Below are positions 55,056 through 58,224 of a stretch of DNA of 64,000 nucleotides, in pieces; within the stretch, counting starts at the first letter, position 1; the number at the start of each line of letters is the position of its first letter. Source of the stretch: Longimicrobiales bacterium. Lineage in GTDB: Bacteria > Gemmatimonadota > Gemmatimonadetes > Longimicrobiales > Gaopeijiaceae. The stretch spans positions 1,504,001-1,568,000 of the forward strand of contig CBDDCX010000008.1 of NCBI GenBank assembly GCA_965226375.1, read 5' to 3'. The position numbers and the translations under genes are program-made. The notes beneath the pieces were generated by a model. The model made no database searches and was not told the DNA's origin. It saw only the letters and a program-made list of their open reading frames with translations.

Positions 55056-55295
55056 CTAAGAAGCCCGACCTAGAGCTGAGCGCAATCGTCTGCGCAACTC
55101 GACGTCAGACATGGCGGCGAGCGCCCGTTCCGCCGTGCCCGAGCTGTTCCAGCGTACGTCCACGAGGCTCACACCATCGTCGGCGGCGCCCTCCACATGG
55201 AGGTGCAGGTAGTAGCGACCCTTGTAGTCCGTACCCGACTCCGATCGCACGGTCGCCACCCAAGCGCTTCCGTTTTCGTCCAGGAATTCAGTCAT
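55056..55295 (-). CDS. small hypothetical protein (79 aa)
   Basis: MTEFLDENGSAWVATVRSESGTDYKGRYYL..; follows the AraC gene on the same strand. Confidence 0.6.
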   Translation of the reverse strand: MTEFLDENGSAWVATVRSESGTDYKGRYYLHLHVEGAADDGVSLVDVRWNSSGTAERALAAMSDVELRRRLRSALGRAS

Positions 55296-55342
55296 GAGAT
55301 TGGATTGAAGGTGATCGTTTCGGACCACATCAGGCGCAGCGA

Positions 55343-56146
55343 TCAGGCGACCGAGATGCGCGACGTGGTCGAAGTCTCGAACCCACAATCTCGCAGAAAG
55401 TGTCTGAGCACGAAGGACAGCACCCCCCGCTCGGCCACCGTCGTGGGCGTTGCGCCGGTAAAACCCTTCAGGGCCCGTCGGAAGGCCGCACCGGACGAAT
55501 ATTCCAACTGGCGACTGACACTCTGCCCGGTCCGCCCGGGATCCCCCAGCCAATGCCCCGCATGGAGGAGTCGAGACCACACGAGGAGGCGTCCGATAGC
55601 CGGCAGACCGGTCCTCTTCAAGCAAACGCTAAGGAAGGGTCGCGACAGGCCCATGAGTTCGGAGAAGCCCTCGGCCGACCAGCACTTGTGAACCTGGTCC
55701 AGGACGAGCCGTAGTGCCTTCGACTCGCGTGGCGTGAGGTCGGGGCTGACCTCCCGCAGAACGCGCGAGGTCACACCTCGTTCTTGAGCCTTGTCGACAC
55801 TTCGGCGCAGGCGCCACGCCTGATCCTCACTGTTCAGGACTACGAGGCTTCGGAAGCCCAGGCGCCCCACCTCGAACAGTGTTCGTGGATCCTCCTTGTC
55901 GCCGGCCAAGAGCACGAATCCCACGCTCGGGAACTGACGGCGCACCCTCAGAAGCCGCTCCAGTCCACCGGGCCCCCATCCGAGCGATGTCAAATCGACC
56001 ATACACACACTCACAGGTCGCTCTCGAAGTGACAGTGCCAGCCAACCAAGCGTTCTGGCCTCGGCAACGTCATGCACGGTCGAGAGTGCCTCTCGGAGGC
56101 CGGATTGCACCTCGGGATTCCGGGTAAAAGTGCTTACAAGTGCCAT
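55343..56146 (-). CDS. AraC-family regulator with N-terminal receiver-like domain
   Basis: C-terminal double HTH (FSELMGLSRPFL..VSRQLEYSSGAAFRRALKGFTGATP); N-terminus VCMVDL..GLERLLRVRRQFPSVGFVLLA. Confidence 0.82.
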   Translation of the reverse strand: MALVSTFTRNPEVQSGLREALSTVHDVAEARTLGWLALSLRERPVSVCMVDLTSLGWGPGGLERLLRVRRQFPSVGFVLLAGDKEDPRTLFEVGRLGFRSLVVLNSEDQAWRLRRSVDKAQERGVTSRVLREVSPDLTPRESKALRLVLDQVHKCWSAEGFSELMGLSRPFLSVCLKRTGLPAIGRLLVWSRLLHAGHWLGDPGRTGQSVSRQLEYSSGAAFRRALKGFTGATPTTVAERGVLSFVLRHFLRDCGFETSTTSRISVA

Positions 56147-56278
56147 GACCTTCGGAAAAGGTATACCCCTAGTCGGAAATGATTGCGGCACCCAAAGATG
56201 CCGCATCCACCTTATTAACGAGCTATACCGTCCAGTCCCCCCTCACCAGAGCCCATCTTCGGGAAGGAACCCGGTCTA

Positions 56279-56413
56279 ATGACGAAGCTTCGCCTCTTTT
56301 TCGCCGTCGCAGCCCTCTCGTTCGCGTTGAGCGCGTGCTCATCGCCCGCGGGCCTGGACTGCGCTGCCGGAGACAGCATGTGCCAGACACTCGCTCCGGG
56401 TGGCAACGGTTAA
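56279..56413 (+). CDS. small secreted lipopeptide (44 aa; not in the ORF track)
   Basis: MTKLRLFFAVAALSFALSAC-SSPAGLDCAAGDSMCQTLAPGGNG*; GGGAAGGA RBS; basic n-region, hydrophobic h-region, LSAC lipobox. Confidence 0.8.
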   Translation: MTKLRLFFAVAALSFALSACSSPAGLDCAAGDSMCQTLAPGGNG

Positions 56414-58224
56414 GGGCCCTGCGCTTCCGTTGAAACCAGCTGGTCCCGCATAGAACTCAACTCACTACGTACCCCCTCGATATCTTCGAGGGTCGTGGTA
56501 TCAAAGCTCGCACCGGCATCCTCGGCCACGGGTTCTCCCGCCCTGAGGGCTTCGAGTGCAGCCTCTGCCTGGAAGAAGATCTGGTGGTTGCCGTGCTCTT
56601 CGGAGTGCGTCTTCGCTTCGGTCATCCAACGTCCGGCGAGTTCGATATCTCCGAAGAGGCCGAAGGCTTGGCCTCGATTCAGAAGCAGTTCGGAGACCAT
56701 GAAGGACGGCCCGTTTCGCCATCCAGTCTCGTCCACGGCTTCGAGTCGATCCTCGAACTGTTTGCGACGGCCCAGCCGAGCCTCGATGTAGGCCAGGGCT
56801 TGTAGCGCATAGACCTTATAGCGGAAATCCTCCGTACGATGGGCCACCACCGTGTACGCGTCTTCCGCCGAGCCGAGCTCCCCCACCTCGACGAACACCC
56901 AAGCCAGGTCCGTCAGGGCGTGGAGCTGGTGCCGCTCGGTCGGATGGAGGCGAACGGCCTCCCACCCGTGGTGGATAGCCTTTCCGTATCGACCGGACAA
57001 CTGCTCGTCGGTCATGAGGTCGTGGTGGCCGAGTCCCTGGACATAGCCGTCACCGTCAGATTCTCCCCACTCGAGGCTCTGACGATGTAGCTCGAGGGCC
57101 TTAGGCAGATTTCCCTTCTCACGGGCGGTGTTCCCGAGCCCGTTCAGGGCCAGTGCGGACAGCCTGCCGTCGCCGAGGGCCTCACCAAGGTCCTGGGCCA
57201 CCCCATACCATTGCTCGCTATCCTCCCAGGCGCCGAACCGGCGATGCGCTCTACCGAGGAAACGGGCGGCGGGGCCGGCGATGGCCGCCGATCCACAGGT
57301 CATGGCGACCTGGTAGGCGAGGCGGAAGATCTCCCGGGCTCCATGCAGGTGTCCGAGCATGTCCACCCGGTCGCCCAACTCGAGGAGCGATCGGCCCAAC
57401 TCCACCCCGTCACCCGAGCCGAGGGCCTCCAGAACCGCGCTCCAGCTCTCGCGCTCGGGATCACCCGCGTCCACGGCGTCCAGCTCGCACTTCACGCCTT
57501 CGACCTGCTGTCGAAGCGCTTCGGGATCCATGGTGAGCTCTTCATCCAGCGCGGAGCGCACAGCCCGGGCCACCAGGAAGCGGGTGGCAATGCGGCGATT
57601 CGTCTCGGCATCGTTCTCCCGTCCCTCCAGGTCTTTGAGGACCGCCCATCCGGAGAAGGTCTCGCCTGCCGCTGGATCGGAACTCTTGCTGAAGCGCTTG
57701 GGACCCGTGGCCTTACGGTCCAGATCTTGATGGAGAACCACGGCCGCCGCCTCACCTGCGACGAACATCAACTCGTCGGTGACATCCACGGCCAATCGCT
57801 GTCGAGGGGTCAGCGAGTCCACGATGAGGAACCAAGCCCTGGTCCCGTCACTGCCCATAGCGACGCAGCAGGAACTGCGAACACCAGAGATCGGGATTTC
57901 TCCGGCCCGCTCGATATCCGGCTTGTCGAGCAGACCCGGTACGCCCTTACCCCACGCCACCCTGCACGCCTCTACCGCGAAGTTACGTCGTGGGGGCTTG
58001 CCCACGAGATCGAGCAGGCAGTGCACGTGAACCAGACCGGGCCCGTACTCATCGACCCATACGACGGCGGCCCGATCGGCCTCCAGCAACTCTTGCGCAC
58101 ATGCGAGATGCCCCAAAAGGCAGGAGCGTACAGGGTCTCCGCGGTAGAGCGCCGCGATCTCCTCTGACCGCTTTGCCCGCCCACTACGGTAATCTGAGAG
58201 TCGTGGAACGTTCGAAGTAGACAT
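56410..58224 (-). CDS. GAF-like + tetratricopeptide-repeat protein
   Basis: TPR-like units (ARFLGRAHRRFGAWEDSEQWY, ALNGLGNTAREKGNLPKALELHRQSL, ALTDLAWVFVEVGELGSAEDAY); N-terminal ADRAAVVW..VRSSCCVAM..WFLIVD resembles GAF. Confidence 0.8.
   Translation of the reverse strand: MSTSNVPRLSDYRSGRAKRSEEIAALYRGDPVRSCLLGHLACAQELLEADRAAVVWVDEYGPGLVHVHCLLDLVGKPPRRNFAVEACRVAWGKGVPGLLDKPDIERAGEIPISGVRSSCCVAMGSDGTRAWFLIVDSLTPRQRLAVDVTDELMFVAGEAAAVVLHQDLDRKATGPKRFSKSSDPAAGETFSGWAVLKDLEGRENDAETNRRIATRFLVARAVRSALDEELTMDPEALRQQVEGVKCELDAVDAGDPERESWSAVLEALGSGDGVELGRSLLELGDRVDMLGHLHGAREIFRLAYQVAMTCGSAAIAGPAARFLGRAHRRFGAWEDSEQWYGVAQDLGEALGDGRLSALALNGLGNTAREKGNLPKALELHRQSLEWGESDGDGYVQGLGHHDLMTDEQLSGRYGKAIHHGWEAVRLHPTERHQLHALTDLAWVFVEVGELGSAEDAYTVVAHRTEDFRYKVYALQALAYIEARLGRRKQFEDRLEAVDETGWRNGPSFMVSELLLNRGQAFGLFGDIELAGRWMTEAKTHSEEHGNHQIFFQAEAALEALRAGEPVAEDAGASFDTTTLEDIEGVRSELSSMRDQLVSTEAQGP

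Follow-up and report, generated by a model that had tools for sequence, protein, structure and literature searches.

Within a stretch of 64,000 nucleotides from a Longimicrobiales bacterium (contig CBDDCX010000008.1; hereafter the window, to which all coordinates refer), three adjacent genes, encoding an AraC-family regulator, a small lipobox propeptide, and a tetratricopeptide repeat (TPR) protein, on balance probably form a circuit for peptide signalling that resembles Rap/Phr, in a phylum of diderm bacteria. The regulator (267 aa; 55343-56146, minus strand) is composed of an N-terminal pseudo-receiver (~1-125) and a C-terminal pair of AraC helix-turn-helix (HTH) motifs; the 44-aa propeptide (56279-56413, plus strand) is encoded divergently from it across a spacer of 132 bp (56147-56278), and its stop overlaps by 4 nt the convergent gene of the 604-aa receptor candidate (56410-58224, minus strand). 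On either side the block is flanked by dacB (Peptidase_S13) and an EamA/DMT (drug/metabolite transporter) gene, as assigned by domain matches; these flanks, the spacer, and the open reading frames (ORFs) were all found where the first-pass annotation had placed them. That annotation had proposed an RRNPP-like circuit in a diderm host, of which the synteny and the peptide-groove covariation have stood; the length of 604 aa, the best structural match to the eukaryotic LGN, and an E-value of ~1e-3 to NprR make RRNPP membership by descent uncertain. The records of close homologs name Longimicrobiales and Gemmatimonadota, and the genome encodes Omp85 proteins and LspA, as would be expected of a diderm cell that can carry out lipoprotein maturation.

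The association of the peptide gene with the TPR gene is constant among close homologs. There are 68 unique full-length TPR genes, 67 with enough flank to be evaluated, and a convergent lipobox peptide gene lies beside all 67, recognised by the filter in 64 cases and by eye in three (one frameshifted, one N-gapped, and one missed by the filter). Since small lipobox ORFs passing the strict filter number 31 over the 4.23 Mb of the genome, corresponding to a background of 0.0037 per kb per strand, this adjacency is not due to chance. In separately fetched metagenome loci, several of which overlap the training genomes, the peptide gene is present in 44/45, and in family f5 (genome G358 left out of the counts) it is convergent at 27 of the 29 TPR loci, all 29 of which show an AraC match. 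Neither TPR homologs devoid of an adjacent small secreted ORF nor a loss of synteny in relatives, two of the observations that the first-pass annotation had set against its own idea, were found among the 67 genes, and several Gemmatimonadota families are syntenic. In particular, the AraC, propeptide, and TPR genes are gained or lost as a block, while the neighbouring 79-aa gene (orf79) stays, and the same trio recurs elsewhere on chromosomes as well as in further families. All three genes are carried by the plasmid NZ_CP007129.1 of Gemmatirosa kalamazoonensis, a named cultured carrier and the sole match among 72,556 plasmid records; in viral contigs no relative was found with the AraC query. 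The searches beyond Gemmatimonadota, that of the plasmids included, were based on a single exact AraC motif, which favours close relatives. The arrangement varies among families: in f3 the AraC and TPR genes form an operon, and genomes of f2 contain 7-12 TPR paralogs each, together with several peptide genes. One f2 locus has two AraC genes, and a decaying cassette is visible in genome G118 (L105:716-2432), where a 5'-truncated AraC gene abuts the DMT gene and the TPR and peptide genes are gone.

The propeptide comprises a Sec/signal peptidase II (SPII)-type signal, a lipobox, a short tether with a Cys28-Cys35 pair, and a C-terminal heptapeptide. Its n-region, h-region, and lipobox are recognised by pattern, the lipobox Cys20 (56336-56338, plus strand) is invariant in 43/43 aligned sequences, and the predicted mature heptapeptide, LAPGGNG (56390-56410, plus strand), is present in a single copy; identical letters were read in run X12, on a contig that comes from a different study. 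A C-terminal tandem repeat is found in 49 of 64 precursors, with a period of 7 in 44 of them and 2-8 copies. Adjacent copies differ by 393 synonymous versus 44 non-synonymous changes, giving proportions of synonymous and non-synonymous differences (pS and pN) of 0.464 and 0.017, respectively, and a pN/pS of 0.036; the repeat filter favours similar copies, and in a neutral simulation at that divergence 1.4% of units pass it. Purifying selection thus acts on the tail, with seven residues as the unit. Relatives of the same genus have six tail copies with His-Asn at positions 1-2, and the window has one changed copy.

Several variants of the precursor were also observed. In genome G026 (L011:3250-3449) a stop falls just after the tether, and four repeat units that are not identical continue in frame behind it, representing either a natural signal-null or an assembly error, and in two genomes the whole propeptide gene is duplicated in tandem (L141:494-839 and L070:1632-1936). 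Many tails of family f5 (L270-L298) are bracketed by two cysteines, which suggests signals that may be cyclised by a disulfide, and others have aromatic-rich ends or repeats of 6-7 residues. In family f2 (L143-L159) many precursors are longer lipoproteins ending in a shared tail of the Gly-Ser-Gly type, some with internal copies.

The receptor candidate is organised in a GAF-like domain (~31-172), a flexible linker, a helical domain with a TPR superhelix (~193-561), and a C-terminal helix. Its AlphaFold2 (AF2) model has a mean predicted local distance difference test (pLDDT) value of 91.3 and a predicted template modelling score of 0.89, with a low-confidence linker at 174-188; neither an HTH nor a signal peptide was seen in the 604 residues. 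The label of a GAF-TPR protein given by the first-pass annotation holds for the TPR part, in which Pfam TPR_12 scores above its cut-off; the N-domain is GAF-like by an ESM Atlas score of 0.98 to GAF clusters and by AF2 topology, while Pfam GAF gave no match to the protein at E<=0.1. Stand-alone homologs of this domain are located at another conserved site (L138:2039-2866, L139:2929-3489, and L140:2559-3428), near genes that we take to be anthranilate-synthase-like and, with a coiled coil, PspA-like. Arg321 (62/64), Arg/Lys325 (62/64), and Arg328 (64/64), on the first inner helix of the groove, are nearly invariant, as expected for a carboxylate anchor like Arg126 of NprR, which recognises the C-terminal carboxylate of its peptide (PMC3763537, in the part consulted).

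The heptapeptide very probably binds this groove, as judged from residue covariation between the two proteins. Positions 2, 5, 6, 9, 12, and 13 of the TPR A helices line the groove, and this definition was fixed before mutual information was computed. The A helices make the concave face of the superhelix (PMC3601957, in the part available). The analysis was based on 51 of 64 rows, 13 being left out for unclear register and 21 labels being set by hand, and these 51 pairs contain 36 distinct heptapeptides. Nine of the top 21 covarying TPR columns fall in the 24 predefined groove columns (of 414), and shifting the definition to the outer helix leaves 0-2 of the top columns. With 48 rows the groove excess is 1.60. 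None of 1000 randomly drawn AraC column sets exceeds 0.78, and the propeptide's own signal and tether give 0.30-0.57; the covariation of peptide C-termini with TPR pocket residues, which the first-pass annotation had put forward as a check, is therefore present, the excess being above all 1000 controls. The best pairs are ordered along the superhelix, with peptide position 1 paired with 516 and 479, 3 with 472, 4 with 365, and 5 with 361, and position 6 outside this order. By this order the heptapeptide would run from the last TPRs, at its N-terminus, to the Arg cluster on the first TPR, at its C-terminus. The window protein differs from those of its three closest relatives with His-peptides at 44 sites, including groove residues 408, 435, 475, 483, 516, and 519.

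Of 30 new pairs, 16 are <75% identical to the training set, two near-duplicate pairs among them; in these 16, counted by eye, Tyr1 occurred with His479 in 5/5 and His1 without it in 8/9, His/Tyr1 with Asp475 in 14/14 and other residues without Asp475 in 2/2, Leu/Ile3 with a non-aromatic 472 in 3/3, and Pro3 with an aromatic 472 in 13/13. Locus L307 resembles the window in having an aliphatic residue at position 1, Asn at 516, and no Asp475. Shared ancestry accounts for part of this agreement.

These data also bear on two other explanations. If the genes were unrelated neighbours and the repeats a slippage product in a low-complexity lipoprotein tail, the conserved layout could reflect the gene order and sequence that kin share, with few independent contrasts; the block-wise presence and absence, the recurrence of the trio at other sites and in other families, the low pN/pS, and a covariation that is groove-specific versus controls of the same genealogy make this hardly credible. 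Repeated cores occur in precursors of ribosomally synthesised and post-translationally modified peptides (RiPPs), and the TPR and AraC proteins could serve the maturation or regulation of such a product. A weak NCBIfam match of the TPR protein to HaaT, a TPR protein of cyclophane RiPPs (24 bits, cut-off 1125), and one asparagine-synthase-family gene near locus L152 point in that direction. Apart from that gene, no modifying enzyme such as radical SAM or YcaO was found in 51 neighbour ORFs of 14 loci, a scope that leaves room for distant enzymes; moreover, the Sec/SPII signal would export the precursor unmodified and the covariation maps to the TPR groove, so that a RiPP origin appears very improbable.

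The regulator was described by the first-pass annotation as a pseudo-receiver AraC protein, and its model (AF2 pLDDT 91), in which the N-domain is a (beta-alpha)5 fold, bears this out, since it aligns to receiver structures with Z 16.8-16.9 and a root-mean-square deviation (rmsd) of 1.8 A over 116-117 residues. With active-site positions assigned from the AF2 strands in 48 homologs, Asp51 is kept in 45 and one acidic residue follows strand 1 in most, while Ala/Val ends strand 4 in place of Thr/Ser and no conserved Lys follows strand 5; the canonical response-regulator site, consisting of an acidic pair, phospho-Asp, Thr/Ser, and Lys, is thus incomplete, and the retained fold and Asp51 together with the missing Thr/Ser and Lys make the term pseudo-receiver fair. 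Pfam HTH_18 was matched in 24/24 aligned homologs, which display the double HTH of the AraC/XylS family; the window protein itself scores 29.5, below the cut-off of 33.6, and matches AdpA with an E-value of 3.8e-12. Paralogous pseudo-receiver AraC genes with neither TPR nor peptide gene (L122-L137 and L254-L269) are found in 125/125 and 66/71 genomes, in other families of the class, and a small peptide gene lies near 0/15 of the paralogs that lack a TPR gene. In genome G001 (L162:2896-3999) a DDE_3 transposase gene of ~1.1 kb, whose Pfam set is IS630-like, interrupts AraC right at its start and parts it from its control region; this is a likely natural regulator-null.

The control region between the divergent genes contains two conserved boxes and a promoter-like element. 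Box 1 (56148-56168), directly upstream of the AraC start codon, is likely the first AraC half-site and/or an araC promoter element; box 2 (56177-56183), which repeats a portion of box 1 imperfectly and in direct orientation with a 21-bp period, is the likely second half-site. At a fixed distance from box 2 lies a minus-10-like element (56208-56213, plus strand), the likely activator-dependent promoter of the propeptide gene. All 68 class-1 intergenic regions align ungapped on box 1, box 2, and this element, with many columns of box 1 at 97-100%, and the minus-10-like element has its A in 63/68 and its T in 67/68 spacers; no conserved minus-35 element is present across these 68, and a generic scan for sigma-70 promoters and terminators returned nothing useful, without a sigma-70 match at the minus-10-like element. 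Clearer 21-bp direct repeats occur in several short-TPR loci, e.g., L109, L115, and L117. A GC-rich inverted repeat is located between box 2 and the minus-10-like element (56185-56204), with similar ones in many homologous spacers. In the divergent region of the AraC/araBAD type, tandem half-sites recur every 21 bp and reach as far as the minus-35 position. The region described here resembles it in that the regulator is divergent from its target and the putative half-sites are in tandem at that period and end at that position; it differs in that the sensing domain is a pseudo-receiver rather than a sugar-binding cupin and in that its sites are predicted from sequence. The boxes and the promoter element, by their likeness to AraC-activated divergent promoters, suggest autoinduction of the peptide gene.

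A mechanism can be proposed in which the precursor would be exported and lipidated by Lgt/LspA, the heptapeptide would be cut from it by some protease, pass the outer membrane, and re-enter cells via transporters of the Opp or POT (proton-dependent oligopeptide transporter) type; a PTR2 transporter is encoded in the genome, as are two peptide-binding proteins of family 5. The heptapeptide would then bind the TPR groove, and the peptide-bound protein would switch the AraC factor through its non-phosphorylatable receiver domain; AraC would activate the propeptide promoter, resulting in positive feedback. Because the TPR protein has no DNA-binding domain, a direct control of AraC through the receiver domain is a rather probable step, to which gene linkage and domain logic point. 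It is likely that the signal functions between cells, with lineage-specific pherotypes.

Two other routes for the same peptide have to be weighed. The precursor could act as a private envelope sensor, being anchored, cut on the periplasmic side, and taken back up by its own producer, and so report export, protease activity, or the state of the envelope and not the presence of neighbours. A Sec/SPII signal with an invariant Cys would hold the precursor on its producer, the envelope is diderm, the operator is unique to the cassette, and dacB and the DMT exporter flank the class-1 site; nevertheless, such a sensor would have little reason for so many distinct heptapeptides among the 51 pairs, for up to 8 copies, or for the 7-12 TPR paralogs and several peptide genes of f2 genomes, and the flanking genes remain where the cassette is absent, all of which renders it unlikely. 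Alternatively, the peptide may be an identity tag borne by contact or vesicles, which would stay lipidated, travel with membrane material, and be processed only in the receiver. The lipobox is retained in essentially all precursors, compared with 92.3% SPI among RRNPPA propeptides (PMC9765709, in the part at hand), and the tails are highly diverse; this route is improbable, given that a scan of 13 neighbourhoods showed no linkage of the cassette to transfer machinery and that tandem identical copies suit the release of many free peptides.

Several observations weigh against an exchanged peptide acting through the TPR protein on AraC. The lipid anchor and the outer membrane, indicated by the Omp85 genes, both impede peptide release, the cassette was not seen to include a protease or transporter gene of its own, and many f5 tails finish in or near a Cys pair and not as a free linear heptapeptide. 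Among GAF-less short-TPR homologs the filter found an adjacent peptide gene in 22/50. An operator matrix scanned over the genome retrieves the window box as the sole site above background (score 36.9 vs 9.8), and with no second site no regulon is evident. AraC-TPR covariation consists of scattered pairs, with no patch. Among the new pairs the Pro5 rule holds in 4/6 and 9/10 and the Asp4 rule in 6/7 and 5/9, the 4/6 and the 5/9 of Gly4 with Asn365 being weaker. On a tree built with FastTree without the groove columns, each peptide-groove rule has 1-4 independent pairs, all concordant or tied and none significant, and the rules had been picked from the same data. Finally, generic TPR proteins lead the fold matches, LGN (Z 19.6) ranking above Rap (Z 16.9).

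In comparison with described systems, the module probably works like Rap/Phr, and this likeness is well supported: a TPR receptor without a DNA-binding domain lies by a small exported propeptide with a C-terminal mature peptide and tandem copies, and orphan receptors exist. Rap targets are receiver-type regulators (PMC11343458 and PMC9765709), and orphan receptors are common among Rap proteins (PMC9765709), according to the parts of these papers covered. The differences from Rap/Phr are a diderm host, a lipobox in the precursor, up to 8 copies versus the 1-4 tandem pheromone copies reported for Phr precursors in the accessible part of PMC11343458, an extra GAF-like domain, and a propeptide gene that points towards the receptor gene and away from the gene of a dedicated AraC protein. 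In structural terms, which the first-pass annotation had suggested comparing with Rap and NprR, RapH matches residues 210-547 of the model with Z 16.9 and 12% identity (308 residues aligned, rmsd 5.3 A), a phage Rap-peptide complex scores Z 16.4, and NprR reaches a Foldseek template modelling score of 0.59 on target length; LGN ranks above RapH, with an rmsd of 5.3 A over 291 residues. By sequence profile NprR (E 7e-4 to 1e-3) ranks under OGT, LGN, and kinesin light chains and is the closest bacterial signalling match. With NprR/NprX the module shares a predicted heptapeptide ligand and a predicted Arg contact to the C-terminal carboxylate, whereas NprR has its own HTH and DNA binding here belongs to a separate AraC protein, and the groove Asn365 varies, occurring in 35/64 TPR proteins. 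LGN/GPSM2 and other peptide-binding TPR superhelices give the best fold and profile matches, LGN-type proteins binding extended peptides in the groove; they are eukaryotic scaffolds with intracellular partners, and the match reflects the generic TPR fold.

Of the five features by which PMC10075063 defines RRNPP systems, the module displays four. The receptor and propeptide genes are adjacent (67/67, convergent), the propeptide is small (homologs of 29-87 aa, n=64, within 10-100 aa), it carries a Sec-secretion signal, at the "relaxed" level, the sole one at which the covered part of PMC10075063 accepts Sec/SPII, and the receptor has TPRs, by Pfam TPR_12 and by the superhelix of the AF2 model. 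The fifth, a receptor length of ~250-500 aa, is exceeded at 604 aa because of the GAF-like domain; the GAF-less homologs of ~410-470 aa would fall within it. Propeptides with SPII signals are a minority (211/2,734) in the portion of PMC9765709 consulted. With four of five features, the deviating length, and an uncertain descent from RRNPPA, the module is filed as Rap/Phr-like and not as an RRNPP(A) member.

The conserved 79-aa gene downstream of AraC (55056-55295, minus strand), which the first-pass annotation had counted in the block, is real and conserved and persists without the trio. It is found in 33/36 genomes of the same family and downstream of AraC in 49/59 class-1 loci; among 30 loci around it, AraC adjoins it in 13, dacB, orf79, and DMT occur without the cassette in 9, and 8 are uninformative. 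As a dedicated module member it was ruled out, being kept in genomes without the other three genes, and it is regarded as a resident neighbour of the insertion site, outside the module. Its family is single-copy, with 522 homologs, no Pfam match, and two highly conserved short motifs, and at most loci the gene and dacB face each other. As for expression, short metatranscriptome contigs from two runs of one study cover the 5' part of AraC, one run also covers part of the TPR gene, and the peptide gene is in none, a gap that carries no weight either way.

In the literature covered, in part, signalling by peptides that are taken up again and sensed by TPR receptors in the cytoplasm is a Gram-positive trait, and no such system is described in Gemmatimonadota, the supplements of PMC10075063 and PMC9765709, which could list such pairs, being outside this coverage. 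It is possible, if somewhat short of probable, that a peptide pheromone system with diversified pherotypes extends across the whole phylum Gemmatimonadota, combining TPR receptors in the cytoplasm with lipoprotein precursors and a pseudo-receiver AraC dedicated to it, and that it arose independently of Firmicutes RRNPP, with a groove code readable from sequence and a recent pherotype switch in the window species. If true, its wide occurrence in a diderm phylum that is abundant yet little studied would change the Gram-positive picture and would raise the question of how a lipoprotein-borne peptide leaves a diderm cell and returns. The idea is cheap to test with synthetic peptides, since >100 natural receptor-peptide pairs display a code of specificity, null alleles occur in nature, and one named carrier is in culture, and the receptor-peptide pairs could serve as orthogonal signalling parts.

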